Virus record (IMG/VR): IMGVR_UViG_3300031951_000177
Coordinates: 1-57,940 of that record
DNA length: 57,940 nt
Origin: a virus
Taxonomy: Duplodnaviria; Caudoviricetes
Strand: one strand, 5' to 3'
Below are positions 19,560-39,094 of the stretch, piece by piece. Numbering within the stretch: the first letter of the stretch is position 1; the number at the start of each line of letters is the position of its first letter. Below the pieces are notes generated by a model, which worked only from the letters and a program-made list of their open reading frames with translations, had not been told where the DNA came from and made no database searches. A program made the translations under genes and the position numbers.

Positions 19560-19873
19560 ACCGCAACAGCTACCGCGAGCTCGAGCTCCAGGTCGTGCGC
19601 TGGGCCGAGGCCAGGCGCATCATCCCGAACGCCAAGCCACAGGCTCAGCTCAACAAGGCTCTCGAGGAGCTGGCCGAGCTGTTCAAAGCGGAGAGCCAGG
19701 GCAACATGCCTGGCGTCAAGGACGGCGTCGGCGACGTCGTCGTCTGCCTGATCAACTACTGCGCGCTCAAGGACATCGACCTCGTCGACTGCCTGGCCCT
19801 GGCCTACGAAGAGATCAAGGACCGCCGCGGCACGCTGATGCCCGACGGCACGTTCGTCAAGGAGGCGGCATGA
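19556..19873 (+). CDS. mazG: MazG-like nucleotide pyrophosphohydrolase
   Basis: WAEARRI...QLNKALEELAEL...KDGVGDVVVCL...AYEEIKDRRG. Confidence 0.87.
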   Translation: MNRNSYRELELQVVRWAEARRIIPNAKPQAQLNKALEELAELFKAESQGNMPGVKDGVGDVVVCLINYCALKDIDLVDCLALAYEEIKDRRGTLMPDGTFVKEAA

Positions 19874-20514
19874 GCTTCGTCTGTCCACTGCCGCCCGAGA
19901 AGGTCTTCGTGCGCGCCGAGTATCTGTACGACCACGACCCGGCCCGGGTCGGCCAGCTCATCGAAGGGATCTGGGTGAGCGTGAAGTCCATCCGCGGCCA
20001 GGCCTTCCGCTTCGAGACCTACCTCCCGGAGTTCGGCGCGCTGTACGACAAGCTGCCCCTGAGCGCGTTCGTGTGGCACGACGTCCTGGAGGAGGATGAC
20101 CAGCTACCGCTGGACGTGCTCCAGATCTGGGACTGCATGAGCTACCACATCGAGGTCATCGACAAGCCTTTCCTCAAGGGCTTGCGCGCTGAGTTCTTCG
20201 GCAAGGACAAGCAGCTTCACCAGGGCGAGTTCATGCTGACGATCGACTCGTGCAATCCCGACCCGCGAATCCCCGACTTCGGCTTTGCCGAGACGCCGGA
20301 GGAGCACAAGTCGTTCAACCTGCTGCGCCTGGACAACGGCCAGTTCGCGCTGCAGCCGAACAATCGCTGCAGGTTTTTCGACCCGTCGATCACGCACTCC
20401 AACCTGCGCATGCCGGACTTCAAGGTGTGCACCAGGATCTTCCGCGTCGAGAACACCGCGAAGTGGCGCCTGGGCGACACCGTCACGGTGACCTACGACG
20501 AGCGGGCCGAGTAG
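19870..20514 (+). CDS. Phage hypothetical protein
   Basis: 214 aa; VRAEYLYDH, GALYDKLPLSAF, QIWDC, EHKSFN, GQFALQPNNR. Confidence 0.82.
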   Translation: MSFVCPLPPEKVFVRAEYLYDHDPARVGQLIEGIWVSVKSIRGQAFRFETYLPEFGALYDKLPLSAFVWHDVLEEDDQLPLDVLQIWDCMSYHIEVIDKPFLKGLRAEFFGKDKQLHQGEFMLTIDSCNPDPRIPDFGFAETPEEHKSFNLLRLDNGQFALQPNNRCRFFDPSITHSNLRMPDFKVCTRIFRVENTAKWRLGDTVTVTYDERAE

Positions 20515-20515
20515 G

Positions 20516-23500
20516 TCAGTCTCGCTCCTCGCCGTCAATCGTGAGACCGGCCCTGAGCCGGTCTCTCTTTTCCTGCTGCAGCTCGATCTGGCGCTCGGCA
20601 TTCTCCGAGCTGATCGCGCCCTTGTTTTCCAAGCGGCGGATGCTGCGGATGCTGGCCTCGATGTCCCGGATGAGCTTGTTCTCCTGCGACTGCCGGATCT
20701 TCTCAGACAGCTCCAGGTCGATGGGCCTGGCCTTGATGCCGACGGTCTGCATGGCAGAGTAGGCAAGCGACACCGGCTGGCCCTGCTTGTCCACGCCGGT
20801 GTACTCGGCGATGCCAAGGTCCAGGGGTTTGCCCACTTGGTTGGCGATCACGTTCATCGCCCGCTCGAAGTGATTGTTGCCCACCGCGACCGCGGGAGAG
20901 AACTGCTTCCACGCCCAGTCGGCGCGCTTGGCCGCGGCCTCCGCGTCGGTGTCTGCAGCGGTCACGATGTCCTTGCCTCGGAACGTGTCCTTGTTGGCCA
21001 GCATCGCGTAGGCGGTGGTCAGGATCGGGTTGTTCGGCGTGATGGGTGCGATCAGCGGCACGCCGCCGGCGTTGTTGACCGCGTCGAACAGGTCGCCGCC
21101 CGGGAAGATCCGGCTCACGTCCAGGAACACGGGCAGGCCCGTCGCCTCGTCCATGCCCAGGCGGATGGACTTGTAGGTCCCCAGCGTCAGGCTGGCGCCC
21201 TTCATCCACTCAGGCAGGTTCTTGCGCTCGTCGGCCTCCAGGGCCTTGGCCTGGGCCGCAAAGTCCTCGTCAGTGAAGCGGCGCTTGATCAGCTCCCACC
21301 ACTCCTCGTCCTCGCCCGCCCCTGCGGCGATCGCGTACATGGCCGCGTTGATCGTGTACAGCGCCGCGGCCGGGGCAGCGTACCGCCAGGGGTAAGTCAG
21401 CGCCGTCTCGGCCATCGCCGGGATCGCCTTGTAGGTGTAGGCAAAGAACGGCAGGGCGAAGTCTCGGATGCGCCTGGCGTTCTTCGGCAGGTCGTCGTAG
21501 GTGAAGATGAACTTCTGGGCGTAGTCGACAGACTCCGCCGGTGTCAGGCCCTTCGTGCGCGCCTCGCGATAGATCAGGTAGCGGAAGAACAGATCCTCGG
21601 CCTCGTAGGCCTTGCCCATGGGCTTGCGCAGCCAGAACGACAGCGCATTCCACACGCCCTCCACCGCCTTGCCCGTCGGGCTCTCCGTCTTGGCGGCCAG
21701 CACCTTGAGCTGGTCCGGCAGGAGTTGGGTCATCTCGGCCTGGGTCATGGTGCCCAGCCACAGGCCGGCGTCCTTCGCCTCCTGCAGCATCGGCGCGTTC
21801 TTCACGATGTCGCGAGTGGTGGCGATGTACTTGTTGGCGTCCCAGTAGGACACGCCAGCGAAGTGCGCCATGGTCACGTTGGACATGATGTTGTTGGCGT
21901 GGCTGACCGGGTTGAGCACGGTCTTGCCTTCCTTCCACATGCTCATGCCTTTGAGGTACATCTTCAGCACCTCGCTCTGCATCGAGTCGTCGAAGGCAGT
22001 CAGGTGATCCAGTACCTCTTGGGGAACCCACATGCCGGCCAGCTTGCCGTACCGCTTGGCGTAGGTGTCCTCGACGTTGGTGCGCGGCACCTGCACGAAG
22101 CCTTCCTTCTCCTTCTTGCTGGCCACGGTGTCGGCGATGTTCTCGTACAGCCGGCCCAGCGAGATGTCGCGCTGGCTCTTGTTGTAGCCCATGACGAACC
22201 GGAACATGGAGTCCCGGATCTCGCCCATGTCGTCGCGCTCCTGGCGGGTGTAGTCGCGCCAGACCGTGATCTCGGTGTCGGTGTCGGGGTTGAAGTTAGG
22301 GTCGCGCTCCTCCCAGCCCTCGGCCAGCCAGGACTCGAGCTCCTCGACGGGGATGGTCTGGAACAGGCCACGGCCCTTCAGGCTGGAGCCGCCGATGCCC
22401 TGCATGGTCTTCTTGCGGCCAAGCAGCGCCTTGGCCGCCTTGACCCACCCATTGGCCTCGCTCTTGAGCTTGGACTCGTAGAAGCGCGGCAGGTACTTGC
22501 CGTCCCACCGGCCGGCCGCCTCGGGCGTCAGCATGCCCAGGCGCACCAGCTCCGCCGTCTGCTCGGACATGATCGACTGCATGCTGGCCGCCAGCTCGAG
22601 CACGCGCTTGGGCGGCTTGGCGCCACGCTTGAGCTCGCCCTCGATGACGTCGCTGATCATCTCGCGCTCTTGCTGCGGCAGCTCCTGCAGCTTGGTGGCC
22701 ACGTCCACCGTCAGCTCCTGGGCCTTGGAGATCTCCATCTTCATCTGCCGCATGGCACGCGACAGGTCAGTGCTGATGGGCTTGAGCGCCATCTTGTCTA
22801 GCACCAGGTTGGCCACGTCGGCCGCGTAGCGGTAGGCCTTGGCGCCGGCACCGAAGGTGAAGTTGCCCAGGTCGTCGCGTCCCAGGAACCAGGACTGCTT
22901 GCTGCGCGATCCAGCGCGCTGGCTGTAGCGGATGTCGGGGTTCTCGGGGTCAAACTCACCGCTGTTGCCGATGGCGGACTTAATCTGGTTCGATGAGAAG
23001 ACGCCGAGGTTCTTTATCTCTTCGTCCTCCTGAAGCTCCTGAACGTAGAACCCGTCGAAGTTGTTCTTCTTGATCCACTCAATCGCCTCTGGGCTCTCGA
23101 TCACGCGGTAGTCGCCGGCGTGGATCATCTCGAGGATGTCGCTTGCACCAGACGCCTCGTCTGGTGCGTCCTCGGCCAATTGCACGGCACTGGGCGGCTT
23201 AAAGCCAATGCTCTTGAGGTGATCGGCAAGAGCCTGCCTGTGCTCCTTGATTTCGTAGTCGAATGGGTTCTCTGCCTTGACGTAGACGGGGATGACGTTG
23301 AGCCCCTGGAAGAGGTCAGGTCCCCCCATCAGATCTGGCGAGAACGGCACACCAGGGAAGCGCTTGCCGAAGATCTTGGGCTTGGCAATGTCCTCGGCCG
23401 CATCGGGGTCGGGTGACACATAGATCGCTCCGCCAACTCCGATTCTGAACACGCCACCCTCGAGCGGGTTGTCGGTGGCGTGGTACATCACCTTTGGCTT

Positions 23501-23971
23501 CTTCGACCCATCGCTGAAGGGGAACTTGGTTGGCGTTCCACCCGACTCAAGCTCGGCAATCCTTTCGCGCGCCTTCTCGTTTTCTATTTTCAATGAGGCA
23601 ATCAAAGACTTTTGCTTCTCGATCTTGGGCCCCCACCAGTCGGCGCGATCGGGATCCTCCTTGAACCGCTCCTCATAGTCCTTCAGCTCGTTTTCGGCAT
23701 ACGGCAAGGAATCCATCTCGCGCTTGAGACTTGCAATCTCCAAGGCGCGGGCCTGATCAATAGTCCTTCCTGGCTTCTCAAGCACCTTGCTGTTGCCGAA
23801 CCATCGCTTGAACTTGGGCGTCTCAGTCTGAGCACGTCGGCTGAACATCGGGCCGCCCGCGCCCTCGATTGCATCCACACCGTTCAAGGCGAGGAAGGCC
23901 TTCATCTCGGCCATCCCCTTGATGGTGACCTCGCCTCCCGCGGTCTTGAACGTGTAGGTGCAATCAGCCAT
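20516..23971 (-). CDS. Large polyvalent ejection-type protein 2 (about 1151 aa) with an ADP-ribosyltransferase-like (ART-PolyVal) module
   Basis: AGGAG RBS + ATG 23971 (MADCTY). TPKFKRWFGNSKV...VMYHAT...IYVSPDP...VIPVYVKAENPFD...FDGF...VFSSNQIKSAIGNSGEFDPENPDIRYS, then a helical C-terminal region typical of podovirus injected proteins. Confidence 0.85.
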   Translation of the reverse strand: MADCTYTFKTAGGEVTIKGMAEMKAFLALNGVDAIEGAGGPMFSRRAQTETPKFKRWFGNSKVLEKPGRTIDQARALEIASLKREMDSLPYAENELKDYEERFKEDPDRADWWGPKIEKQKSLIASLKIENEKARERIAELESGGTPTKFPFSDGSKKPKVMYHATDNPLEGGVFRIGVGGAIYVSPDPDAAEDIAKPKIFGKRFPGVPFSPDLMGGPDLFQGLNVIPVYVKAENPFDYEIKEHRQALADHLKSIGFKPPSAVQLAEDAPDEASGASDILEMIHAGDYRVIESPEAIEWIKKNNFDGFYVQELQEDEEIKNLGVFSSNQIKSAIGNSGEFDPENPDIRYSQRAGSRSKQSWFLGRDDLGNFTFGAGAKAYRYAADVANLVLDKMALKPISTDLSRAMRQMKMEISKAQELTVDVATKLQELPQQEREMISDVIEGELKRGAKPPKRVLELAASMQSIMSEQTAELVRLGMLTPEAAGRWDGKYLPRFYESKLKSEANGWVKAAKALLGRKKTMQGIGGSSLKGRGLFQTIPVEELESWLAEGWEERDPNFNPDTDTEITVWRDYTRQERDDMGEIRDSMFRFVMGYNKSQRDISLGRLYENIADTVASKKEKEGFVQVPRTNVEDTYAKRYGKLAGMWVPQEVLDHLTAFDDSMQSEVLKMYLKGMSMWKEGKTVLNPVSHANNIMSNVTMAHFAGVSYWDANKYIATTRDIVKNAPMLQEAKDAGLWLGTMTQAEMTQLLPDQLKVLAAKTESPTGKAVEGVWNALSFWLRKPMGKAYEAEDLFFRYLIYREARTKGLTPAESVDYAQKFIFTYDDLPKNARRIRDFALPFFAYTYKAIPAMAETALTYPWRYAAPAAALYTINAAMYAIAAGAGEDEEWWELIKRRFTDEDFAAQAKALEADERKNLPEWMKGASLTLGTYKSIRLGMDEATGLPVFLDVSRIFPGGDLFDAVNNAGGVPLIAPITPNNPILTTAYAMLANKDTFRGKDIVTAADTDAEAAAKRADWAWKQFSPAVAVGNNHFERAMNVIANQVGKPLDLGIAEYTGVDKQGQPVSLAYSAMQTVGIKARPIDLELSEKIRQSQENKLIRDIEASIRSIRRLENKGAISSENAERQIELQQEKRDRLRAGLTIDGEERD

Positions 23972-24455
23972 TGCCCAGCTCCTGGTCAATCAGCAGCATG
24001 CCTGCCTTGTCGCCGCTCACCAGCCCCAGGCGCGCCAGTAGGTCGCCGTACTCGCCGACGCTCTTGCGCTGAACTTCGAGGAACTGCAGCAGGAACTGCT
24101 GGGTCGTCACGCACTTGCACTCGCGATACCACTTCTCGTAGTCGCGCATGAGCTGCAGCTCGGTCTCGTAGCCCAGTTCGATGGCGTCGACGATGTCGGT
24201 GGCCACCTCGGTGCAAGCCTCAAGCGCCGGCACCTTCGCGCTGGTGCCGCGGTCGTTCATGTAGTCGGCAATGAGCTGGTAGTGCTTGAGCTCGTCAGAG
24301 CTCTCGCCGGCAAAGAACTTCTGCGTGCCGAAGAACCCGACGCGCTGCATCTGGTTGGCGACGTGCTTGTACAGGTGCGAGGCGTAGAGCTCAGCGTGGA
24401 CCGCCTTGTTCAGCATGTCCTCGGTGGGCTTGTCGAGCAGATTGGAAACAGGCAT
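23964..24455 (-). CDS. Ferritin-like protein
   Basis: 163 aa; ELYASHLY, ESSDELKH, YMNDRG, YETELQL, EVQRKSVGEYGD match ferritin ferroxidase helices; GAGG RBS. Confidence 0.9.
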   Translation of the reverse strand: MPVSNLLDKPTEDMLNKAVHAELYASHLYKHVANQMQRVGFFGTQKFFAGESSDELKHYQLIADYMNDRGTSAKVPALEACTEVATDIVDAIELGYETELQLMRDYEKWYRECKCVTTQQFLLQFLEVQRKSVGEYGDLLARLGLVSGDKAGMLLIDQELGNG

Positions 24456-24464
24456 TGTGATACC

Positions 24465-27400
24465 TCACTTGCAGTTGATCTTCACCAGGCCGGCGTCGTC
24501 GAGCCGCTCCAGGATGTCCATGAACTCTTGGTCGATGCGGCGGATTGTCTCAGCCATCGGGTGCGCGTCAACCCGCTCGAGCGCACGCACGCGCCCCAGG
24601 CCTCGGGCGTCTTGCAGATCGCGGAACAGGCCGGCCACTTCCTTGTCCTCAGCACGGGCGCGCTGACTGAATGCGGGCGCATCCTGCCAGCCCTGCGGCG
24701 ACGAGGTCGGCTTGTAGTAGGTGCCGATCCAGCCCATCAGGTTGACGTCGGTCTTGACCGTGCGCGCAGAGATCATCTCCGCCAGCTTGGGCCACACCCC
24801 AGGCCAAGACACGAAGTTGCCATTGAGCTTGACGTCAGCCTTAGGATCTCCAGCCTTGCGACCAGTCAGCGCCTGCTTGGCCAGGCCGGGGTCCAGGTAC
24901 AGCAGGTTGCCGTCGTTGATGCGTTTCATCAGCACCTGCTCGTTCGGCTTGCCGCCGGAGATCGACACGCCCTTGGCGTAGATCGACATCACCGCGCCGG
25001 TCGGATCGGTGTTGTCCACCGACACCTTGATCGGGACGATCAGCGCGCCCTTGTCGCTGGTGATCGGCAGCACCAGCTCGAACTCGCGGGGGTTGCCGTC
25101 CTTCGACTTCAGCACCATGGCCGGGCGGTAGATGCCCTCGATGAGCTGCTTGGGCGTGATGTCGGGAAGCTCGTCCGCGTGTCCTTTTTCTGCCTTGGTC
25201 CTGATGAAGACCTTGTTCACGATGCTGGTGGCGATGTCGAAGTCCTGCGTGCGAGCGCCCAGCATGTTGAGCACATGGGGCAGCCGGCCGATGGTGAGCT
25301 TCGGCAACTGGCGTCCCTGCTGCGCCTCGCGGATGTAGCGCTGCAAGTTGATCGAGGCGCCCTCGATCTCTTTGTTCAGGGCGCTCTGCGGCGACACCTT
25401 CGGCAGTTGACGGTTGCTGAATGCTGGCGCTTCAGCTCGAAGCTCGCGAGCCAGCTCGCCGCGGTACATGACCTTGTCGGACTGCCACACCGGGTTGCCA
25501 GCCAGGCGCTCGTAGACGTCCGGCATGCCGCGAGAGATGAGCTCCGCCCAACGCTTGCCGGACACCTGCCCGGCCGGCAGCATCTTGTTGGCTGAGATCT
25601 TCTCAGCGTCGCTCAGCACTCGCTCACGGGCCGGTGCAACAGCCTCGCCTGCCATGCGGCTGCGAGCGCCGAGCTGCTCGACGGGCACCGCATGCCGACC
25701 CAGCAGCACTGCATTGCCTGACGGCCCGGCGTCGCGCACCATGTAGCCGTCGAAGCCTGCGTCGATGACGGCCGACTCGAAGTCGTTGAAGGACTCGTTG
25801 TCGCGGCGCAGACGCAGCGTGTCCTCGTCGACGTCGTACAGGTTCTGCAGATTGACGCGGTGAGCCTGGCCCCCCACGCCGGCCTCAGGATTGATGCCGG
25901 TGCCGCGATCGATGTAGAAGTTGATGCGCTGCTTCAGGCGCGGATCTGCGCCCTGCAAGCGCGTCATCTCGGCACCGCGCAGGCCGGTGCCATACATCAC
26001 GCTGTCGAGGGTCGTGCGGGGCTGGGTGCTGTAGTGATAGCCGACCGCGGAGGCGGCGCCCTCTCGAGGGGTGCCGTAGGAAGGGGTTACCGCTTGAACG
26101 TCTTGCGGCCCCACTCCTCGATCGCGTCCACCGCCGGCTGCATCGGATCCGCCTCGGTTGCTGAACTGGATTCGGCCGGGGTCTCCCCACTGGTACTTTT
26201 CGGCGAACTGCTCGAAGACTCGCTGGACCCGAGGCGCGAGAACACTTCTGGCCCAGTCGAGAACATCGGATCGTCCCGCGGCACTAATCCTTTGTATGTA
26301 GCCTTGCCCATTCGGGTTTACCTCCCAGTCATTGGTTGGCATGTCGCCGCTGGAGGCGAACACGCGATAGTCGAAGTCCGGCAGCACCCCCTCCGCGACC
26401 TTCACGATCTCTGATTGGAGTACGTCATTTGTGATGATACCGAAGTTCACGGCCCTAATACCAGTGGGAGAACTGATCAGCGCAAACTGGTTCTGCCAGT
26501 TGACCTTGCCGTTGTCGTCCATCCACTTGCCGATTGCCGCCTCGAGATCTCGCGTTTCTACCGGGTTCAGTGCCCGGCCGATGTCGATGTCCAGGCCGTT
26601 GGACTGGCGCTTCGTGCCGGCGTAGAAAGGACGGTGCCAGCCCACCCCCTCCTGCCTGGCCACCAGGCCGGCCACGGACGCATAGACGTTGAGCAGCTCG
26701 GCCTGTGCCGGGTCGACGTTGCTCTTGCCCGCATCGCCTCCGGCCGGCGCCATAGCCACGCGCTTCTGCGTGCTGGGTGACACCTCGCCCTGCCACACGC
26801 CCGGGCGCATCAGGTCGCTGGGCTCCGTCAGAAGGCCGAGCATTACGGCCAGCATGTCGCTGCCGTTCTCGTCGTAGAAGGCCCGCTGCACGGCCTGATG
26901 GAACTCCACCTGCTGGGCATACGGTGCGGTGTGGATCCCCTCTAGAACGCCCGTGCTGCGGCCTGGCCGAGCCTCGAACGAAAGCTGACCGACGTGACGT
27001 CCGACTCCATCAGCAAAGTCGAACTTGGCCTGCTCGGTATCCTCCTTGGTGGGCACATGCTCCGTCGCATGCTTGAGCCAGTTGTCGCGGTGCTTCTGCG
27101 CGTCGATGATGACGCGGACCTTCTTGCCCTTCGCGTCGCGCTCAAACCTGATCCAGCCATTCTTTTCGCTGCTGGCCTCAGTCCTCTCCTTGACGCCTTT
27201 GTTCTCCATGCGGGCCTTCATCGCGACCCAGATGGCGGCCTGCACTTGCTGCGGCTCCCATCCCATCTCCTGCGCAATGCGGTTGGTCTCGTTCTCCATG
27301 AAGGCGTACTGCGTCGGCGTGGGTGCGTCGTTGGCGTACTCGGCCGCACGCATCATCCACATGTCGATCGTCGCGCCCTGCTTGCCGGCAGTGCTGGTGT

Positions 27401-30400
27401 CGATCTCGCGCAGCAGGTTGAAGAAGAAGTTGCCCGTCTTCTCGCCAGACCAGAAGGCGTCAACGTCGGCCATTGCCTGAGTCGCCTTCTTGTCCTGCAC
27501 CCCGGTCTTGACGCTGATCGGCTGGCCAGCCTTGTACTGTGCCCAGGCTCGCAGCGCAAACGTCGAGTTACTGTCGACACGCGCCTGCGGGCTGTAGATG
27601 GCCAGCAGGGCAACGAACTTGCGCGCCTCCTGCACGTTGCCGCCAGTCATGCGCAAGATCGCCAGGCTGCTGTTCTCGTACCAGTAGCGACCGCGCTCGC
27701 CCTCTTTGGTCAACTTGAGAAGGATGGCGCGCAGCTCACCAATCTTTTCAGGGGTGTTGTACTTTTCGGGTGCGCCGACGTACTTTCCGTCCCGCATTGG
27801 CAGCTCGTCGAGCACAACGCCAGCCCGGCTGTATGCCGTCTTGCGGCCCTCAAGCGCAGCCCTCACACGCGGTGCGGCCGACGTGGTGAACACAATTCCG
27901 TCTTTGGTGTTGCGACCCTTCACGTCATCAGGGATGCTGGCGCGGATAGCCTCGTGGCTTCCATAGACCATGATCGTCCCGTCCCGCATAGTGCGGACAT
28001 CAAAGTCACCCACGCGCTCGGTGCCCTCGCGGGGCTTTAACTCTTGTGAAGTTTTTGATACACTTGACTCGTCAGGAGATCCTATGAAAGTCCCCTCTTC
28101 CTTCCCAGCCGGCTGCGAGTTCGTTGCCTCGTTCTCCGGCGACGAGTTCGTCAAGTTCCCCGACGGCAAGCTCTTCAAGCTCGCCGACTCCGGCGAAGAG
28201 CTCGTGCCAGCCAGCTCGCTGCCTGCACGCGGCGCGCCGATGTCGGAGGCTGCCTTCCTGTCCTGCGCCGAGGGCTGCCGCAAGTTCGCCGCCGAGAAAG
28301 CTGCGTCGTAAAGACCACGCATCGCGTCGTAGATCTCGCCGCGCAGCGGTGAACCCTCAGGCTGCTCACGGGCGGCCTCGTACAACTTGTGGCCCTGGCC
28401 ATCCTTGGCGGCCAGCATGGCGGGCGTATTGATCTGGATCTCACCCACCGTGCCGTTGGGCATTCTGATGTTGATCAGCACGTCGGCATAGCCGCCGAAC
28501 TTTTGGCGGTCTGACGACTCCACCCCCTCGCCAGTCACGCCAGCACCGGCGCGGTCCTTGATGCGGACCACGTCGAACTCCTTGCGGATCTCGTCGATGA
28601 TCGCGGGCGCGTCGGCGTAGCTGTCGACCACGATGGTCGAGCGCAGCAGGTCCTTGATGTTGTCGACCTGGTAGTTCTCCTCAAGCGCCAGCTTCTCGGC
28701 CGCACGCTTGATGCCCTTGATGGGCGCCAGCATCTGGCCGGTGGCGCCGGTGCGCGCTGCGATGTTCAGGATCTTCTGGTCGTACTCCGGCTTGACCTGC
28801 TCGGCCGCTTCCATCCTGGGCTTCAGCAAGATCTCTGCGCGCAGGCGATCCTGCGGCGAAACGGAGACTGGCTGCCGCTCCTTGAAGTACTTCTCGACGA
28901 ACCCGTCGGCCGCCGCCACTGTCTCTGCCGGCACCGACTCGGACAGCAGCGAAGCCATGTCGCGCTGATTGTTGAAGTTGTCGGCCTTCGGGTTGTAGTC
29001 GCTGACCTTCACAGGCTCGCGGGCCCGGCCGCTGAACATGAACTCGGACTTCTGTCCGTAGGTTGGGTTCTTGGCCAGCACCAGGGGGCCGATTTGGATG
29101 ACCTCCTGCGCAGCGACGACGGGCTCCATCGTGGAGCGGTCGTAGAAGTAGCTGTGCCGCTCGGGGTCCATGCCGACCTGGATCCAGGACTTGGAGTTGA
29201 GAGCAGCCTGCGCAAACGCGACCGCCTGCTTCTCGGTCATCTGTTTCCACTTGCCCTCGATGCGAGCGAACGGAGACTTAGCCGAGTCGCCCTTGGCGAT
29301 CTCAAGCGCCTTCTCCTGCTCGCGAGGGGTCATCGCAAACTCGGCATCGGTCACGGCCGACACGTTTCCGTACAAGGTCTTCTTGTCCTTGTTGGCCGGG
29401 TGGATCGAGTTGACCCACACGCCGTGGTCCTTGTACGCCGGAATATCCAGGCGCAGCCCCACGCGCTCGCCGTTGGTCAGCTCTTTGTCGGCGATGCCGT
29501 AGCGCGGCAGCTTGGCCGACGTCAGGGCGCGCTCGGCGTCAGCCTGAGTTGCAGGCTCAGGCACGAACGAATACGGCGCCACGGGCTTGTATTCGTCCAC
29601 CATGCGGGCGTAGTCCTCGCGAGTGATCGCGCCTTGGGACAGCTTGTTCGCCCCCTCGGTCAGCTCCGGCACCCGCTTGGTCACGTCCTTGAAGTCCATG
29701 CTCAGGCGGTTGACGGCAACGCGCTGAGACGCCATGGCCATGCCCTCGAGCTGCACGTCGGGCTGCAGGCCCTGCGCCTTCATCGCGTCGGCGTAGGCGG
29801 TCGTCAACAGGTCGCGAGCCTTCGCGACGTCGGAGATGTACTTGTTGACGAAGTCCTCGCCGTACTGCTTCTTCGCGCCGGTGATGATGTCGCCGAGCTT
29901 GGCGATGATGGTCTTGGCCACCTCGCCAAACTCCTTGTTGCCCATCTTCGTGCGCAGCTCTTGCCAGAAGTCCTCGCGCTTGCTGATGGCCTGCACCATC
30001 ATGGCCGGGGCCTCCTCCTCGAACTTGTCCGGCGTGTAGCTGAACTCGTCGAGGAACTTGTCCTTGCGGTCCTGGCGGAACAGATCCAGCAGCGCGGTGT
30101 TCAGGCTTTTGCGCTGAGCCTCCGGCAGGCCGTGATAGGCCTCGTGCACCGTGATGGCCAGGGGCGCATCGTCCGCATCGTCGGCGACGAACAGGTGCTT
30201 GCCGCCGACGCTGTTGATCATGCCGTTGGGCAGAGCGCCTGCACCGGTCTCCTGGTGGACTACCGTCAAGGTCTTGCCCATCAGGCGCGCCACCGCACTG
30301 GCCAGGCGCTGCGAGTCGTTCAGGTCGGTCGACTTGACCGGCGAGAACGTGACGCCGAGCTGCTGGTCGAGCTGCTTGTTGAGCGAGCTCAGCTCTCGCA

Positions 30401-32675
30401 GCGGCGCCGTGGGCGCGAGCTTCAGTCCGGCACGTTCAGTATCAGACAGTTCAACCGGGGCGCCGGTTGCGGCGGGGATGCCACCAGCGCCGCTTTGTGC
30501 GGCACCTGCCATTTGGCCTGCTGGTGTTGCTCCTTGCGTTTGGCCTTGCTGGGCTTGAGGGGTTTGCGTGCCAAGGTTGGTCTCCTTTTGGTATCCGACA
30601 ATCTGAAAGCGCCCGTTGCCCATGGGCTCGACACGCCAGTCGTGAGTCTGCCTGGTGTCGATGACCGTGCTGGCAGTGGCCATCGCCTGCTGAGCGTCCT
30701 GCTCGTTTGCATAGCCAGTCTTTGCGCGGCCAGTCCAAGTCAGCGGCTCACCGCCTACGGCTACGCCGGCAGGCTGTTGGCCGGCCGCACCTCCAGCAGG
30801 TACAGCCTGTCGATCATTGACTCCAGGGATCGCGAGAGCTCCGCCTCCGTACCCGGTGGCACCTGCAGCGCCAGGTCCTGCAGCTCCCATGCTTCCGTCA
30901 ATGAGACCGCCCCCTGCCTCACCCCCTGCTCCAGCCAATCCTCCAGGTAAGCCTGTTGTGCCGACATTCGCGCCTCCCATGCGCAGCTTGTCCAGACCGA
31001 ACTGCTCCTCGGTCGACGGGTTGATCTCGGGCAGGATAGGAGCCGCGTTCGGCAGCGGCACCTCGATGTCCACCAGGCCGGCCTGCTTGGTCGGCGCGTT
31101 GGGCGGGGTGAAGTTCTTGACGGTCGCGGCGGGTGAGATCAGGTTTGAGGTGCCGGCTTCCGTGCGCAGCATGTCAATGCTGATAGCTTGCGATGCCTCT
31201 GGCCCAAGGTTCTCAAACGCACGCCCAGCCGAGTCGATCTCCCGCGCAATCTGGCGCTCAGGTTCGTAGTAGCCGGTCGCTGCGGCGGCAACCTGAGGCG
31301 CGCTCATCAGCTTGCCCGTCACGCCGCCAACAACTCCGGCCTCGGCCAGGCCCTTGGTCAGCTCAATGTCCTTGCCCTGGAAGTACTTGTCGAGCACGTT
31401 GCCGCCGAACTGCGCAGCCACTTCTTCGATCGCGTTGGTCAGCCCGTTGGCAGTGATTGCACCGCCGGCCTGCAGAGCGCGCTGGCCAGCCACCGCCAGC
31501 ACCGTGTTGGCCTTGGCCGGAGACATCCCCTTGAGCACGTCGCCGACTTTGTCGAACACACCAAGCGGCAGCTTCTCGGATATGTACTCCACCCCGCCCT
31601 TGGCGAGAGCCACGCGGGAGTCGTCGCCTTGAGCGAAGCTCTGGCCAGCCGCCGTGCCTGCCATGCCAGGCAGCAAAGCTGCGCGCAGCGGCGGCACAAA
31701 CGCAGCCAGCAGAGACTGCGCGATCTGCGGCGAGTTGGCGGCGAGCTTCGACATCAACCACGGCGCAAACTCTTGGCGCGCAATGGCCTCGTCCATCTCT
31801 TGCTTGCCAACCTTTGGCATGAAGTCGCTGGCAGACTTGGCCAGGTACTCAGTGCCAAATGCGGTGGGAACAGGGGGGAGATCTTGCATTCCCAGTGCGC
31901 GCAGCACCGGGTTGATGGCAGTCTTGTTGAAGGCGTCTGCGGCGACCGAGGGGATGTTGATCACGCCGCTGATCAAGCCCGCGGAGCCGGCAGCAATGGA
32001 ACCCAGCAGCGGATTCTCTTCGGCAAACTTGCGGCGCCCTTCGGATTCCGCCATTTGGCTGGTAACGCCACTGATCTCGTCTACGCGCAGACCCTCATCG
32101 GCCACGCGCACGCCCTGCGCCAGCATGCGGCGGTCGGCGATCTGCTTAGCCGAGCGGCCATCCATGATGTCGCCAAAGCCAGGAGTGACATCAGGAATTG
32201 AGACGGGCGACGCTGCGCCGGCACCAAGCCTGGGCGGCGGGACATTGCCGGGTCCACGCGGAGCATCCAGCAATCTTTGAGCTCGCCCCTCCTGGTCCAA
32301 GCTGATGCGCTTGTTTTCTGCCTGCGCCTCAGACAGGATCTGACGCGCCGCCCGGCCCAGCACATCTGTGCGATTGTCGGCCAGGGTAGTCAACAGGCGC
32401 ATGCGATCTTCAGGCGCGGCCTTGCCGATGATGTCGCGCCGAACGCCGGCCACATAGTCCTGGTTCAGCATCGGATCGAACCCGGGCGTGCGAGGCACTT
32501 CGCCAGGCTGATCCATCACGCTGCGGATCAGCGGCCCGCCGGTAGGCGCGCCCTGCATGGCCGTGGCCATGTCGGAGTAGTCCGTCGCATCGGCGGACTC
32601 CACCTCCTCAATCGGGATGAAGCGGAAGGCTTTCTGCTCTTCCTTCTCGAACTCGGAGATGGGTACGAATCGCAT
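24465..32675 (-). CDS. Giant polyvalent ejection-type protein 1 (about 2736 aa): metallopeptidase, RelA/SpoT-like synthetase, HhH-glycosylase-like, ART-like and MuF-C/PBECR nuclease-like modules
   Basis: HEAYH (about 30140); IKGIKRAAEK...DLLRSTIVV...GYADV...EIQINT...HKLYE (about 28330-28830); YWYE...AIYSPQ...TIDMWMMR...QVQAAIW (about 27220-27700); YHYS...FYI...GFDGY (about 25700-26045); IGRLPHVL...H...IYRPAMVLKS...SIYAK (about 24870-25310). Confidence 0.9.
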   Translation of the reverse strand: MRFVPISEFEKEEQKAFRFIPIEEVESADATDYSDMATAMQGAPTGGPLIRSVMDQPGEVPRTPGFDPMLNQDYVAGVRRDIIGKAAPEDRMRLLTTLADNRTDVLGRAARQILSEAQAENKRISLDQEGRAQRLLDAPRGPGNVPPPRLGAGAASPVSIPDVTPGFGDIMDGRSAKQIADRRMLAQGVRVADEGLRVDEISGVTSQMAESEGRRKFAEENPLLGSIAAGSAGLISGVINIPSVAADAFNKTAINPVLRALGMQDLPPVPTAFGTEYLAKSASDFMPKVGKQEMDEAIARQEFAPWLMSKLAANSPQIAQSLLAAFVPPLRAALLPGMAGTAAGQSFAQGDDSRVALAKGGVEYISEKLPLGVFDKVGDVLKGMSPAKANTVLAVAGQRALQAGGAITANGLTNAIEEVAAQFGGNVLDKYFQGKDIELTKGLAEAGVVGGVTGKLMSAPQVAAAATGYYEPERQIAREIDSAGRAFENLGPEASQAISIDMLRTEAGTSNLISPAATVKNFTPPNAPTKQAGLVDIEVPLPNAAPILPEINPSTEEQFGLDKLRMGGANVGTTGLPGGLAGAGGEAGGGLIDGSMGAAGPGAAGATGYGGGALAIPGVNDRQAVPAGGAAGQQPAGVAVGGEPLTWTGRAKTGYANEQDAQQAMATASTVIDTRQTHDWRVEPMGNGRFQIVGYQKETNLGTQTPQAQQGQTQGATPAGQMAGAAQSGAGGIPAATGAPVELSDTERAGLKLAPTAPLRELSSLNKQLDQQLGVTFSPVKSTDLNDSQRLASAVARLMGKTLTVVHQETGAGALPNGMINSVGGKHLFVADDADDAPLAITVHEAYHGLPEAQRKSLNTALLDLFRQDRKDKFLDEFSYTPDKFEEEAPAMMVQAISKREDFWQELRTKMGNKEFGEVAKTIIAKLGDIITGAKKQYGEDFVNKYISDVAKARDLLTTAYADAMKAQGLQPDVQLEGMAMASQRVAVNRLSMDFKDVTKRVPELTEGANKLSQGAITREDYARMVDEYKPVAPYSFVPEPATQADAERALTSAKLPRYGIADKELTNGERVGLRLDIPAYKDHGVWVNSIHPANKDKKTLYGNVSAVTDAEFAMTPREQEKALEIAKGDSAKSPFARIEGKWKQMTEKQAVAFAQAALNSKSWIQVGMDPERHSYFYDRSTMEPVVAAQEVIQIGPLVLAKNPTYGQKSEFMFSGRAREPVKVSDYNPKADNFNNQRDMASLLSESVPAETVAAADGFVEKYFKERQPVSVSPQDRLRAEILLKPRMEAAEQVKPEYDQKILNIAARTGATGQMLAPIKGIKRAAEKLALEENYQVDNIKDLLRSTIVVDSYADAPAIIDEIRKEFDVVRIKDRAGAGVTGEGVESSDRQKFGGYADVLINIRMPNGTVGEIQINTPAMLAAKDGQGHKLYEAAREQPEGSPLRGEIYDAMRGLYDAAFSAANLRQPSAQDRKAASDIGAPRAGSELAGTSSSPESASLKSLPSGNLTNSSPENEATNSQPAGKEEGTFIGSPDESSVSKTSQELKPREGTERVGDFDVRTMRDGTIMVYGSHEAIRASIPDDVKGRNTKDGIVFTTSAAPRVRAALEGRKTAYSRAGVVLDELPMRDGKYVGAPEKYNTPEKIGELRAILLKLTKEGERGRYWYENSSLAILRMTGGNVQEARKFVALLAIYSPQARVDSNSTFALRAWAQYKAGQPISVKTGVQDKKATQAMADVDAFWSGEKTGNFFFNLLREIDTSTAGKQGATIDMWMMRAAEYANDAPTPTQYAFMENETNRIAQEMGWEPQQVQAAIWVAMKARMENKGVKERTEASSEKNGWIRFERDAKGKKVRVIIDAQKHRDNWLKHATEHVPTKEDTEQAKFDFADGVGRHVGQLSFEARPGRSTGVLEGIHTAPYAQQVEFHQAVQRAFYDENGSDMLAVMLGLLTEPSDLMRPGVWQGEVSPSTQKRVAMAPAGGDAGKSNVDPAQAELLNVYASVAGLVARQEGVGWHRPFYAGTKRQSNGLDIDIGRALNPVETRDLEAAIGKWMDDNGKVNWQNQFALISSPTGIRAVNFGIITNDVLQSEIVKVAEGVLPDFDYRVFASSGDMPTNDWEVNPNGQGYIQRISAAGRSDVLDWARSVLAPRVQRVFEQFAEKYQWGDPGRIQFSNRGGSDAAGGGRDRGVGPQDVQAVTPSYGTPREGAASAVGYHYSTQPRTTLDSVMYGTGLRGAEMTRLQGADPRLKQRINFYIDRGTGINPEAGVGGQAHRVNLQNLYDVDEDTLRLRRDNESFNDFESAVIDAGFDGYMVRDAGPSGNAVLLGRHAVPVEQLGARSRMAGEAVAPARERVLSDAEKISANKMLPAGQVSGKRWAELISRGMPDVYERLAGNPVWQSDKVMYRGELARELRAEAPAFSNRQLPKVSPQSALNKEIEGASINLQRYIREAQQGRQLPKLTIGRLPHVLNMLGARTQDFDIATSIVNKVFIRTKAEKGHADELPDITPKQLIEGIYRPAMVLKSKDGNPREFELVLPITSDKGALIVPIKVSVDNTDPTGAVMSIYAKGVSISGGKPNEQVLMKRINDGNLLYLDPGLAKQALTGRKAGDPKADVKLNGNFVSWPGVWPKLAEMISARTVKTDVNLMGWIGTYYKPTSSPQGWQDAPAFSQRARAEDKEVAGLFRDLQDARGLGRVRALERVDAHPMAETIRRIDQEFMDILERLDDAGLVKINCK
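26087..26311 (-). CDS. Candidate nested gene (+1 frame) inside giant protein 1
   Basis: GGAGGT-7 nt-ATG; 74 aa MGKATYKGLVPRDDPMFSTGPEVF...AVDAIEEWGRKTFKR; host-frame codon usage is locally atypical. Confidence 0.5.
   Translation of the reverse strand: MGKATYKGLVPRDDPMFSTGPEVFSRLGSSESSSSSPKSTSGETPAESSSATEADPMQPAVDAIEEWGRKTFKR
28036..28078 (+). promoter_or_regulatory. Internal antisense promoter and RBS
   Basis: TTTAAC(28036)-17 nt-TACACT(28059), AGGAG(28074), in an AT-rich patch inside a GC-rich gene. Confidence 0.65.
28084..28311 (+). CDS. Candidate nested antisense gene (75 aa) next to the RelA/SpoT module; putative immunity protein
   Basis: Promoter + AGGAG + ATG; MKVPSSFPAGCEFVASFSGDEFVKFPDGKLFKLADSGEELVP...; the host frame here is a Ser-rich low-complexity linker. 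Confidence 0.65.
   Translation: MKVPSSFPAGCEFVASFSGDEFVKFPDGKLFKLADSGEELVPASSLPARGAPMSEAAFLSCAEGCRKFAAEKAAS
30422..30574 (-). CDS. Weak candidate nested gene (+1 frame, basic, 50 aa)
   Basis: AAGGAG-7 nt-TTG; MARKPLKPSKAKRKEQHQQAKWQVPHK. Confidence 0.3.
   Translation of the reverse strand: MARKPLKPSKAKRKEQHQQAKWQVPHKAALVASPPQPAPRLNCLILNVPD
30761..30967 (-). CDS. Candidate nested gene (+1 frame, acidic helical, 68 aa)
   Basis: GGAGG-5 nt-ATG; MSAQQAYLEDWLEQGVRQGAVSLTEAWELQDL...; GC3 bias shifts to this frame while the host frame uses TTA/GGA/GCA codons. Confidence 0.62.
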   Translation of the reverse strand: MSAQQAYLEDWLEQGVRQGAVSLTEAWELQDLALQVPPGTEAELSRSLESMIDRLYLLEVRPANSLPA

Positions 32676-32677
32676 GC

Positions 32678-33862
32678 TTACTTCCCGACGTAGCCGATGA
32701 CCTTGCCGCTCTTGTCCTTCACTTCCCAACCCCGACCAGACACAAGCGCGCCGATCGAGGAGCCGGCCGGGGCGCCCTGCACTTGGGCGATTTGCGGCGG
32801 ACTCTTGGCGTCAGAGGGGGCCGGGGCCGCTGGAGCCGCCGCGGGAGCGCCGCTGGATTCTCCACTACCAGGCCGCTTGAACTGCTTCATCGCCGCATTC
32901 AATTCCGTCAGCTCGTTCAGGAACGGCTGAATCTCTTCAAGCCTTGTCTTGGCCTTTGCGTCACCGGCTTCAGCACGCTTGCGCAGGGATGCGAGCGAGG
33001 CGTTGACCTCGTTCTTGGTGACCCCAAGGGTCAGCGCAATGTCGTCCTTGCTGGCGTTGATCTGACGTTGAATGTCCGCGGTGGTCGCTGGCTTCTTGTT
33101 CGGGTCAGAAGGGTTCGCCGAGCGCTCAGCGCGTCTTTCACGGGTGCGCGCATCTGCCTCCATGATGCCCAGGCGGCGATCGGTCTGATCGCCTCGACGG
33201 CGGCCCTCATCTGCGCGCTGCCTGTTCCCTTCTTCGATCAGGTCCAGCCGGCGATTTGTCGCGGCCTGCTCAGCGGCGCGCTGCTTCTCTCTGTTCTCCT
33301 CGGCCACCTCGCGCAGCGTGTCCGCCTTGGCCTTCGTGTAGGCATCGAGCACAGACGAGTGCGCACCCATTCCCATGGCCGCGGTCACGCGGTCCTCGGC
33401 AGCGATCATCCGCGGGTCGCGGGTCGACTCTGCTGCACCCTCGATCAGGCCTGACTTGCGGTAGCTCTCGCGCAGCGCCGGATCCTTGCGGATCAGGTCG
33501 AGCATCTGCTCCTTGCTGAGCGCGATGTCACCCTCCTCGCCGGCCTTGGCAGACATCTCACCCAGCTTGGTGGCGTCAGAGTCCATGCGCGCAGTGCGGC
33601 GCTCGGTCCCCATCTGCGTGGCGCGCTGCTCGACCTGCGCGGTTTCAGCAGTCACGCGCTGCTTCAGCGTCTCGGCCTTCTTCTCCTCGCGCTCGGCGCG
33701 GATCCTGTCAGCCTCCTCGGCCCGCTTGATGGCGTTGGCCTCGCGCCGCTCCTCGTCCTCGCGCCTGCGCTGGTCCTCGATGTCCTTCAGCATGTAGCTG
33801 CCAAAGGTGGTCCCGGCATCTGCGATGCCTTTGCCGATCCCGGCCCAGATCAGTCCGCTCAT
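32678..33862 (-). CDS. Putative ejection/internal virion protein (charged coiled coil)
   Basis: 394 aa; position between the pilot-like genes and the giant protein. Confidence 0.8.
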   Translation of the reverse strand: MSGLIWAGIGKGIADAGTTFGSYMLKDIEDQRRREDEERREANAIKRAEEADRIRAEREEKKAETLKQRVTAETAQVEQRATQMGTERRTARMDSDATKLGEMSAKAGEEGDIALSKEQMLDLIRKDPALRESYRKSGLIEGAAESTRDPRMIAAEDRVTAAMGMGAHSSVLDAYTKAKADTLREVAEENREKQRAAEQAATNRRLDLIEEGNRQRADEGRRRGDQTDRRLGIMEADARTRERRAERSANPSDPNKKPATTADIQRQINASKDDIALTLGVTKNEVNASLASLRKRAEAGDAKAKTRLEEIQPFLNELTELNAAMKQFKRPGSGESSGAPAAAPAAPAPSDAKSPPQIAQVQGAPAGSSIGALVSGRGWEVKDKSGKVIGYVGK

Positions 33863-34434
33863 GCTGGCATCTCCTCCGGCGCCTGCTCCTCGCCGGCCGC
33901 CATGCGGTTGAACTCCTCAGGGTCGACCTGGTCCATGGCCTGCTGCAGTTGCGTCGTGTCCACGCCCTGCTCGCCCAGGAAGCGCAGGATCATCTGCTTC
34001 AGGGCCATCGCCACGTCGGACGGCTGCAGAGGGACGTTGGCCGCCTCGGCGATCTCAGCCACCTCCTCAAGCACGAAGGTCGCAAAGGCGGCCAGCATCT
34101 CGTCAGGCACCGCGCCGTTCGTCTTCTCGTCGGTGATGGTGATGATCTCGTAGGCGGTGTTGGCCAGCGCCTCTACCGGGTCACGCGCAGTCTTGATGGA
34201 CTTCGCGATGTCCTTGGCTGCCTTGTTCTTGTACAGGGCCTCCATGGCGAACTGAGCGGCCTGCTGGTACCCAGGGTCCGACTCGGGGTCAACGCCCTCT
34301 TCTGCGGGCTCCTGGCCCTCCTGCTGGGCTTGCATATCCTGCGGCCCTGGAGCTGGCGTGGTGACGGGCGGCTGCTGCATTGCGTCGTCGACTTCCGACG
34401 ACGGCGCCATCTGGTCTTTGATCAGTCCTGCCAT
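33859..34434 (-). CDS. Acidic hypothetical protein of the ejection module
   Basis: AAGGA RBS + MAGLIKDQ; ATGA coupling. Confidence 0.8.
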   Translation of the reverse strand: MAGLIKDQMAPSSEVDDAMQQPPVTTPAPGPQDMQAQQEGQEPAEEGVDPESDPGYQQAAQFAMEALYKNKAAKDIAKSIKTARDPVEALANTAYEIITITDEKTNGAVPDEMLAAFATFVLEEVAEIAEAANVPLQPSDVAMALKQMILRFLGEQGVDTTQLQQAMDQVDPEEFNRMAAGEEQAPEEMPA

Positions 34435-34445
34435 GATGATTCCTT

Positions 34446-35120
34446 TCAGGCGCGGCGGGGCCACAGGCTGGTGCCGACGTTGCGGTTGTAAGCGGCGAGC
34501 TTGTCCTCTTCCTTCTGATCCATCCGCTCTTGCTGCTTCTGCGCGCCGTAGCCCTGCATGGCGCCGCCGATGAGCTGAGTGCCGCCGCTGATCAAAGCGG
34601 GCGCGGTGTATTGGCTGGACATTACCTTGGCCAGCAGGCCGGAGCCGCCAGCGGGCGTGACTGGCGGCATGCCTGCTGGAGCAGGCAGTGACATCGGCGC
34701 GCCACCAGTGGCCTGCGTGATCGCAGCCTGCGCCGGGGACACGATTGATTGCGGGGCCATGGACATGCCTGGCGTTGCGGCCGGAGTTGCAAGCGCCGCC
34801 GGGGCCGATCCGGCAGTCCCCATAAAACCTTCAGACAGCGCAGTTCCGGCGCCACTGAAACTGCCTTTCGTGAGCGCGGTAAACGCATTGCCAATTCCTG
34901 TTGCAGCACTACTTAAACCTGAGCTCATCCCAGACAAGAACGATGTACTGGTGCCGATGGTGTTAAGGCCTCCCATCAGCGCAGCACCACCAAAGTAAAC
35001 AGCCGCCGCTGTGAGCAGCACCTTGCCCACCTTGGACTTCGCCACCTTCTTCACGACGTTGGTCACGCCCTTGACGACCTTGCTGACTGCACGGCCGATA
35101 CCCTTGACAACCTTGCTCAT
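34446..35120 (-). CDS. Putative ejection protein (Gly/Ala-rich, membrane-interacting)
   Basis: Amphipathic basic N-terminus MSKVVKGIGRAVSKVVKGV, hydrophobic segment, Gly-rich. Confidence 0.8.
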   Translation of the reverse strand: MSKVVKGIGRAVSKVVKGVTNVVKKVAKSKVGKVLLTAAAVYFGGAALMGGLNTIGTSTSFLSGMSSGLSSAATGIGNAFTALTKGSFSGAGTALSEGFMGTAGSAPAALATPAATPGMSMAPQSIVSPAQAAITQATGGAPMSLPAPAGMPPVTPAGGSGLLAKVMSSQYTAPALISGGTQLIGGAMQGYGAQKQQERMDQKEEDKLAAYNRNVGTSLWPRRA

Positions 35121-35560
35121 AGAGCGCTCCTTACATACGTCATGTTGATCGACTTGCGACCGAAGCCCAGGCGCTTGAGAAAGCGCACCATCCGCAGGTC
35201 GACGTTGGGCTCAAGCTCAAGCACCGCCACCTTGATGCCCGATCGCGACTTCACCCACCTGGCGAGCTCGCGCAGCAGGGCCGCGCCAGCACCAGGCTTG
35301 CGCGTGTAGTACAGCAGCACCGAGCACTGCAGGCCTCGATACCAAAACGACTTCTGCGTCATCGCCGCCACCGCGGCCACCACGTTGCCCGCCTCGTCCT
35401 CGGCCACCCACATGAAGTGCGCCGGGTTCAAGCACTGCATGGCCATCTCGCGCATCGCCTCGCGGTCCACAGTGACCGGCAGCGGATCGCGCATGACCGA
35501 CTCCACCGCGATGTCCACGATCGCGATGATGTCGCGGTAGGTTGCCTTGCGGGAAATCAT
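35117..35560 (-). CDS. GNAT-fold acetyltransferase-like protein
   Basis: RKATYRDI...WVAEDEAGNVVA...GAGAALLREL...FLKRLGF. Confidence 0.8.
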   Translation of the reverse strand: MISRKATYRDIIAIVDIAVESVMRDPLPVTVDREAMREMAMQCLNPAHFMWVAEDEAGNVVAAVAAMTQKSFWYRGLQCSVLLYYTRKPGAGAALLRELARWVKSRSGIKVAVLELEPNVDLRMVRFLKRLGFGRKSINMTYVRSAL

Positions 35561-35568
35561 TTAGGTCA

Positions 35569-38572: not shown

Positions 38573-39094
38573 CTAGCCGGTGGCCGCCGCGTCGCTCAGA
38601 AACAGCGCACGCTCGTCCTTGCGCCGACGCACCAGGCCAGGCAGCTCGCGGCCGCCACCTTTGGTCCACATCATGAACGCCTCGGCAGCGCCATCGAACT
38701 CGCCGCGGTTGTTGCGGATGCGGATCTGAGACCGCTGGTAGTTGCCTAGACCAGCGTTGAACGCAAAAGAGACCACAGCGTCAAATGCGCCCTGACGACC
38801 AGCCAGATTAGGAGACAGTCGAAGAGCGCCACGCTCAAAATTTGCGACGTCCTGGCTAAAGAGATTCTCGATCTCGTCCTTCGTCCAGACACGGTTGTCC
38901 TCCGGGCGCAGCGGGTAGTCCTTGCGGATCATTCCCTGGTAGTCCCCGACGCGGGCCACAGGCAACCGGATCTGATCCTGGTACAGCACATGGCCGTAGC
39001 CAATGGTCCAGATGTGCGCCGGGCACAAGTACGGCCTCGACCGATACCCCTCGTACCGGTGCATCAGGTCAGCGCCGCGCTTGCTCAGTTTCAC
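38573..39094 (-). CDS. Endolysin, GH24 lysozyme
   Basis: YEGYRSRPYLCPAHIWTIGYGH, FDAVVSFAFNAG, WTKGGGRELPGLVRRRKDE. Confidence 0.93.
   Translation of the reverse strand: MKLSKRGADLMHRYEGYRSRPYLCPAHIWTIGYGHVLYQDQIRLPVARVGDYQGMIRKDYPLRPEDNRVWTKDEIENLFSQDVANFERGALRLSPNLAGRQGAFDAVVSFAFNAGLGNYQRSQIRIRNNRGEFDGAAEAFMMWTKGGGRELPGLVRRRKDERALFLSDAAATG

Follow-up and report, generated by a model that had tools for sequence, protein, structure and literature searches.

Gene content of the locus

The window analysed here is the complete record of an uncultured podophage (IMG/VR record IMGVR_UViG_3300031951_000177; 57,940 bases, about 58 kb; G+C 63%), and its point of interest is a ferritin gene lying between the genes for two giant polyvalent proteins. 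The three genes, like the other late genes, are on the minus strand throughout. Giant polyvalent protein 1 (24465..32729) counts 2,754 amino acids from a TTG codon, or 2,736 from the likely ATG start at 32675, and ends ...LVKINCK. It is followed by a spacer of 9 nt (24456..24464), where a GAGG Shine-Dalgarno-like run spans the giant 1 stop codon, and by the ferritin gene (23964..24455) of 163 codons. Giant polyvalent protein 2 (20516..23971; 1,151 amino acids from ATG, starting MADC...) is the final gene of the late operon, and its ATG begins before the ferritin stop, giving an overlap of 8 nt (ATGGCTGA). Given the short spacer with its GAGG run and the 8-nt overlap, giant 1, ferritin and giant 2 are interpreted as one translationally coupled unit. 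This arrangement had been described in an earlier note made from the sequence alone; the coordinates, the length of the ferritin, the 9-bp gap after giant 1, the overlap with giant 2 and the two protein ends ...KINCK and MADC... were all found to be correct.

The final 58 residues of giant 1 (EVAGLF...LVKINCK; 24468..24641, minus strand) and the initial 42 residues of giant 2 (MADCTYTF...GAGGPM; 23846..23971, minus strand) are here called the Cys-tail and the Cys-head module. On the same strand an FSQR boundary motif (24660..24671) lies upstream of the tail module and an FSRR motif (23834..23845) downstream of the head module. The third-position G+C content of the ferritin gene (GC3 = 0.89) is similar to that of the neighbouring genes, and the ferritin is therefore not a recent arrival. 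A scan for promoters and terminators around the junction gave nothing above chance.

The ferritin

The 163 amino acid protein matches the Pfam family PF00210 over residues 13-143 (70.6 bits, cut-off 24.5, E = 1.7e-19). An AlphaFold2 model computed with 36 relatives has a pLDDT (predicted local distance difference test) of 94.2, with helices at residues 9-39, 42-68, 88-112, 116-145 and 150-161, that is four long helices and a short fifth one, and Foldseek aligns it to the ferritins of A. fulgidus (1S3Q), T. maritima (1VLG) and E. coli (1EUM) with template modelling (TM) scores of 0.91-0.94. By sequence, the PDB entry ranking first is the ferritin of A. fulgidus (E = 1.5e-11), and each of the 60 best matches bears the name ferritin. 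Residues E22, Y29, E55, H58, E99 and Q129 are invariant in the 36 relatives, which are 59-94% identical to the window ferritin, and align with the ferritin ligand positions of 1S3Q; we take them to be the ligands of the di-iron ferroxidase centre (Glu, Tyr, Glu-x-x-His, Glu, Gln). Such invariance is a signature of selection for catalysis, and the retention of the ferroxidase ligands, proposed in the earlier note, is borne out by both the alignment and the relatives. Judged by its predicted fold and its ligand set, the open reading frame (ORF) at 23964-24455 is a true ferritin of the 24-subunit Ftn type, and it is very probably functional, that is predicted to oxidise and store iron.

Helix D sets this protein apart. 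The EQVEEE stretch of the A. fulgidus ferritin, which carries the acidic residues of site C, aligns to VQRKSV in the window ferritin; the loss of the third-site glutamates from the fourth helix is therefore real, as had been claimed. The further claim that this helix is of animal type did not hold. The segment covering helices D and E alone matches the ferritin SynFtn in nine of ten PDB hits, the tenth being an unrelated nanobody binder, and the top matches of the whole protein are archaeal and bacterial. Compared with the prokaryotic non-haem ferritins (1S3Q, 1VLG, 1EUM and SynFtn 5OUW), the protein has the same fold (TM 0.89-0.94), intrasubunit di-iron ligands and a similar length, but it is only 20-24% identical to them, has R, K and S in place of the third-site acids of helix D and is phage-encoded, within operons for head and ejection proteins.

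Other assignments were considered and rejected. Membership of the bacterial FtnA subclass is contradicted by a score of the protein of only 33.5 bits against the NCBIfam equivalog NF007638 (cut-off 178), and the acidic residues of site C are gone. A Dps (12-subunit mini-ferritin) does not agree with the presence of a fifth helix, nor with the 60 best PDB matches all being ferritins. For an animal H-chain-like ferritin, no animal ferritin was found among the matches of the helix D-E segment, and the best relatives of the whole protein are archaeal or bacterial. An encapsulin cargo ferritin was set aside as the protein stops two residues past helix E and has no terminal extension in the 36 relatives.

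Conservation of the junction

Four locus scans, starting from the ferritin, the tail module, the head module and a ferritin profile, were all performed within IMG/VR, and their contigs overlap. The ferritin scan gave 69 loci of 54-94% identity, in 63 of which a long upstream frame ending ...INC(K/D) stops 8-17 nt before the ferritin. The other six comprise three loci without upstream DNA, two with fewer than 100 upstream codons and one ending ...TNCKTL. The downstream giant in these loci starts M..C(T)Y.F. The reciprocal scans gave the same picture, with the ferritin directly downstream in all 60 of the tail-module loci and directly upstream in 48 of the 49 head-module loci, the 49th beginning at a contig end. 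The ferritin profile detected 80 loci, 72 with the Cys tail, three without upstream DNA and five in lambda-like phages. The ferritin is thus the middle part of a conserved three-part junction consisting of tail module, ferritin and head module.

Alignment of the tail module (58 amino acids, 42 sequences) shows F6, G14, L44, I55, N56 and C57 to be invariant, and in the head module (32 sequences) M1, C4, G13, G19 and L27 are invariant. The junction is kept across four variants of the tail, which end INC(K/D), IKC, ...NK.C(L/V/M) and ...VCP; the tail variant P0238 has no locus in IMG/VR. Ferritins of relatives are 59-94% identical to that of the window, as against 35-98% and 29-90% for the flanking tail and head modules, and the ferritin is the better conserved part.

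In one locus (L130) a gene for a 163 amino acid homing endonuclease of HNH/AP2 type (4912-5403, plus strand) is found between the ferritin and the Cys-headed giant 2, the junction being otherwise intact. Giant 1 of this locus contains a helicase-methylase array and has the C-terminus ...VDIKC.

A megablast search of the 12-kb region against cultured phages gave no match. By tblastn the ferritin gave only three matches of 22-25% identity, in unverified faecal contigs, and the one that was inspected (MT836766) has no giant ORFs and looks bacterial. The giants gave single-domain matches only, and the tail module gave nothing by tblastn.

The giant proteins, their boundary motifs and their cargo

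Both giants are modular polyvalent proteins, of the kind packed in the head and ejected into the cell. In Pfam, giant 1 matches DUF7178 (52.5 bits), with RelA_SpoT and MuF_C below threshold only, and giant 2 matches ART-PolyVal (43.5 bits, cut-off 31.2). In the ART-PolyVal domain and the MuF_C-like and RelA/SpoT-like domains, the latter two sub-threshold, they resemble the polyvalent proteins described in the survey by Iyer et al. 2017 (PMC5512222), in which a term search for ferritin gave 0 occurrences. Tail and head modules match no Pfam family, the only Pfam matches of the giants falling elsewhere; from its sequence, the tail module is probably helical.

Four FS.R motifs are present in giant 1 (residues 1232, 2189, 2437 and 2687), a count exceeding 99% of shuffles, and two in giant 2. 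When close relatives (ferritin identity 93-94%) are compared, similarity breaks off precisely at the FS.R motifs, to the left as well as to the right of the block. The tail module is 97-98% identical in relatives whose sequence diverges upstream of FSQR, and past the FSRR of the head module relatives diverge immediately. The fixed block consequently runs from FSQR over tail module, ferritin and head module to FSRR (23834-24671), with shuffled cargo outside. The description of the segment from AFSQR to MFSRR as a motif-bounded cassette, given in the earlier note, is a fair one. Proteins bearing the tail module elsewhere carry InPase, ART-PolyVal, NUDIX, LPD1, LPD3, ddrB-ParB and helicase-methylase domains.

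Seven relatives of giant 1 (P0179, P0180, P0235, P0242, P0244, P0256 and P0200) begin, at about residues 35-170, with a domain of SLT or glucosaminidase type, a start as in ejection proteins that breach the cell wall. P0244 additionally has a LAGLIDADG domain.

Single cysteines of the giant proteins

Giant 1 contains exactly one Cys, its penultimate residue, and giant 2 exactly one, Cys4. The six putative internal proteins of the window, which are the two giants and four proteins encoded upstream, have 2 Cys in 5,671 amino acids, against 73 Cys in 7,811 amino acids for 23 other window proteins (Poisson P = 1.4e-20). The ferritin itself holds 3 Cys, unlike the Cys-free internal proteins. The pattern is general in relatives, in a total of about 120 distinct giants and 186,134 amino acids. 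All 61 distinct downstream giants (88,898 amino acids) have one Cys each, and each of the 59 distinct upstream giants (97,236 amino acids) has the terminal Cys. The upstream giants have only 12 further Cys, all near the beginning of the stop-to-stop frame (codon 23 at the latest); these probably precede the start codon.

One observation bears on contact between the ends. Of 39 distinct pairs whose tail ends ...CK, 19 have an acidic residue ahead of the head Cys, as against 1 of 21 whose tail ends ...CD (Fisher P = 0.0005, relatedness left uncorrected); this match of charges is a weak hint, at the level of sequence, that tail and head ends may touch directly. Complex prediction with ferritin, tail module and head module as partner gave 0.53, 0.54 and 0.53. 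Two controls with the partner replaced gave 0.00, but a control with the ferritin replaced gave 0.56, and the scores count neither for nor against any binding.

A precedent is found in cyanophage A4. According to the cryo-electron microscopy study of its pre-ejectosome (PMC12002296), gp27 reaches into gp26 with its C-terminal helix, which is fixed there by a disulfide between gp27 Cys1715 and gp26 Cys5. In the A-4L record the two genes are direct neighbours, gp27 having the C-terminus ...NPCQF and gp26 the N-terminus MSKHC. The likeness to the window lies in adjacent genes for giant internal proteins, with a Cys near the C-terminus of the upstream one (2-3 residues from the end) and Cys4 or Cys5 in the downstream one. 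The differences are the ferritin between the genes in the window and the A4 proteins not being arrays of polyvalent enzymes.

Ferritin in lambda-like phages, distribution and hosts

The five lambda-like loci among the 80 of the profile scan (L189:2183-7748, L211:2312-7451, L184, L173 and L212) carry a ferritin 57-61% identical to that of the window. Its gene lies between the portal gene (phrog_21) and the genes for a scaffold-like protein and the head protease (phrog_53), downstream of a lambda-type large terminase; the Cys modules are absent. In a quick ferritin tree the five group together as a single clade within the ferritins of junction type; the outgroup is very distant, and direction of transfer and rooting are tentative. 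With members of its clade next to a portal gene and away from any Cys module, the ferritin is an autonomous unit. In two unrelated phage types, then, its gene lies among genes for proteins of the procapsid interior, which suggests an association with the head that does not depend on the Cys ends.

Among 185,579 species genomes the ferritin clade was present in only five short contigs of metagenome-assembled genomes (MAGs), four of them with the same phage junction, so that it is practically confined to phages. Burkholderiales, Rhodoferax and Methylobacter are among the labels of these MAGs. Together with a domain-level tblastn match of the giants to a Limnohabitans phage and the 63% G+C of the window, they point to freshwater proteobacterial hosts, with Burkholderiales as likely ones. 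DNA near-identical to positions 22500-26000 of the window occurs in 17 sequencing runs of 12 studies, possible source runs not counted, labelled freshwater metagenome (2024-2025) or fungus metagenome (2019).

Other members of the ferritin superfamily are on record in phages. These are the Dps and Mn-catalase of 'Gratiaviridae' (PMC8008677) and a ferritin-like protein detected in particles of megaphage G (PMC12484599). The window gene resembles them in being a phage-borne member of the superfamily and differs from the Dps and catalase types in encoding a canonical ferritin with an intrasubunit ferroxidase centre, in a fixed slot between ejected giants. The literature searches yielded no paper that places a canonical ferritin among ejection or head genes or that describes Cys-tipped modules, although subscription journals and supplements may hold one. 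A canonical ferritin is not known from phage morphogenesis or ejection modules, and here it is fixed in one across many uncultured freshwater phages and recurs beside the portal gene of unrelated lambda-like phages. The arrangement suggests that iron chemistry has an unexpected part in head assembly.

Proposed function and alternatives

The explanation which best covers the data, and which we hold with moderate confidence, is that the giants are clasped together by their Cys ends and that a working, head-associated ferritin is made alongside. The part concerning the clasp is rather probable on sequence and by analogy with A4. The tail and head modules would dock and their lone Cys would form an inter-chain disulfide, tying the two ejected giants end to end in the oxidised virion; the reducing cytoplasm would cut the disulfide again, as in the case of gp27 and gp26 of A4. 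Through translational coupling the ferritin would be made in step with both giants, and it would probably act at or in the assembling head, controlling the reactions of iron and peroxide near the DNA and the lone thiols. This last part, an action of the ferritin in or at the head, is proposed tentatively from its gene context and is somewhat more doubtful than the clasp. The earlier note had suggested that terminal Cys residues re-link two halves of one protein; the linking, offered there as speculation, receives strong if indirect support from the sole, invariant Cys and from the A4 disulfide, while the notion of two halves of one split protein was not supported.

Several points weigh against this explanation. 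No sequence similarity of the tail and head modules to the A4 termini was found, and searches of the PDB with their profiles, at E values up to 10, brought up no protein of a phage; our claim is consequently that the clasp works like that of A4, not that it is homologous to it. The strict linkage of ferritin and modules could reflect vertical inheritance within one phage clade, as none of the ferritins found falls below 50% identity. A cage of 24 ferritin subunits is too large for the tail channel, and the protein has no extension by which it could be recruited for packaging. Should the FS.R motifs be sites of proteolysis, the clasp modules would be severed from their cargo. Finally, the link between ferritin and Cys may be incidental, as the lambda-like loci keep the ferritin without the clasp.

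The strongest of the rivals, which we regard as somewhat unlikely, is a plain auxiliary metabolic gene. The ferritin would be free in the host cytoplasm, buffering iron or limiting oxidative damage late in infection, with no connection to the virion or to the Cys, and its position would be explained by a gap between two late genes that tolerates an insert. A full-length, self-sufficient ferritin with no extra domain agrees with this, as does its occurrence without clasp modules in lambda-like phages, and phage Dps and Mn-catalase genes are read in this way in the literature (PMC8008677). However, both contexts of the gene are those of procapsid-interior proteins and not of metabolic or early genes, the linkage to the modules is near-absolute in three reciprocal scans, and the ferritin is better conserved than the modules which flank it.

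A second alternative concerns the origin of the junction. A mobile cassette made up of tail module, ferritin and head module would have landed in an ancestral giant gene and split it, the Cys-tipped ends re-joining the halves. FS.R motifs delimit this block just as they do other modules, and the homing-type HNH gene in the junction of L130 indicates that the site accepts mobile DNA. MW202426, the nearest relative by capsid protein (42% identity), has one giant of 3,145 amino acids, which is Cys-free, and no ferritin. That giant shares only a 44 amino acid match with the window giants and is therefore not an unsplit orthologue; neither this comparison nor tblastn of the giants detected one. A profile of the tail module was searched against 1.84 billion representative proteins and gave 230 matches, with positions taken from 150 of them. 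Among these 150 listed matches the module is at the last residue of the protein in 139 and 1-3 residues before the end in 4, while in 7 it is followed by a 13 amino acid extension, again ending ...C(L/V/M). In none of the 150 does the module lie inside a longer protein, that is, it is never more than 13 residues from the C-terminus, and none is a fused, ferritin-less form. Relatives with fused giants and no ferritin, which the earlier note had proposed to look for, were accordingly absent within these searches, an outcome that goes against the splitting of one ancestral protein by a cassette. With cargo shuffled among close relatives, 'two halves of one protein' has in addition no fixed meaning, and we regard an origin by splitting as unlikely.

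A more specific role, and a quite improbable one, is that of a redox helper. The ferritin, in or near the head, would give the oxidant that closes the clasp, in the form of peroxide from the ferroxidase or ferric iron of the core, a role likened to that of the sulfhydryl oxidases of large DNA viruses of eukaryotes. Iron in ferritin is reduced by thiols, and peroxide can be a product of the ferroxidase reaction. A disulfide in the cytoplasm requires an oxidant, the ferritin is translated between both Cys-bearing ends, and the linkage in the locus scans is tight. Yet the A4 disulfide forms with no ferritin gene between gp27 and gp26, lambda-like phages have the ferritin but no clasp, and air oxidation after lysis would suffice.

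The boldest combination, in which the ferritin would be packed in the head as a store of iron and oxidant, there to close or to protect the redox-switchable clasp that links the ejected giants end to end, is a long shot. An analogy is offered by encapsulins, in which genes for an HK97-fold shell and for a protein of the ferritin superfamily go together. The window ferritin differs from encapsulin cargo in having no targeting-peptide extension, and its packaging is putative. If true, some phage capsids would at the same time be encapsulin-like compartments loaded with ferritin, and such a phage would bring its own machinery for a structural disulfide.

Very unlikely is a ferritin that is itself an ejected effector, its subunits being packaged and delivered together with the giants in order to capture iron or to blunt an iron- or radical-dependent host response. 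It shares the operon with polyvalent proteins bearing domains of counter-defence type (ART, NUDIX, InPase, helicase-methylase), but it has no packaging or ejection signal, the assembled cage is not ejectable, and its 3 Cys contrast with the Cys-free ejected proteins. An intein-like or protein-splicing junction, brought to mind by the Asn-Cys that closes giant 1 and by the Cys-led, beta-like start of giant 2, is scarcely credible, since the wider family reads I[N/K/V/E]C (INC, IKC, IVC and IEC), keeping the Cys and not the Asn, the order of the pieces is reversed relative to a split intein, and neither giant has a Pfam Hint or intein match.

With the clasp and a head-associated ferritin as the preferred explanation, the junction offers a directly testable model in which redox state governs both the joining of successive ejected proteins and their later release. 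It bears on whether phage particles carry or need iron chemistry, and hence on ideas about iron bound to phages in natural waters. As a natural, redox-reversible pair, the tail and head modules might in addition be of use for joining proteins.

Other genes in the window

The remaining late genes identified, all on the minus strand, encode the portal/adaptor (55313-57511), the major head protein (48712-49743), an SU10-type adaptor (46710-47405), the tail fibre (41298-44114) and the endolysin (38573-39124). They are followed by a block (32678..38466) of probable internal or ejection proteins of 965, 224, 201 and 394 amino acids, each Cys-free. Among these putative internal-protein genes lies one for a GNAT acetyltransferase (35117-35560, minus strand).

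Convergent on giant 2, a gene on the plus strand (19870-20514) matches phrog_3704 (E = 9e-88), a family labelled 'ferredoxin'; the label looks unreliable, as the product has no Pfam match and no obvious iron-sulfur Cys motif. Near the endolysin an ORF of 250 amino acids (40232-40984, minus strand), which has no family match, combines a lipoprotein-like start (...LGLTAC) with a Gly-rich tail ending ...ALNC, and from these features it may be a spanin-like lysis protein. An endonuclease VII/HNH-like gene (44111-44647, minus strand; phrog_1035 and phrog_26577) is found within the tail gene block, with the gene of a 685 amino acid protein on one side and the tail fibre gene on the other.

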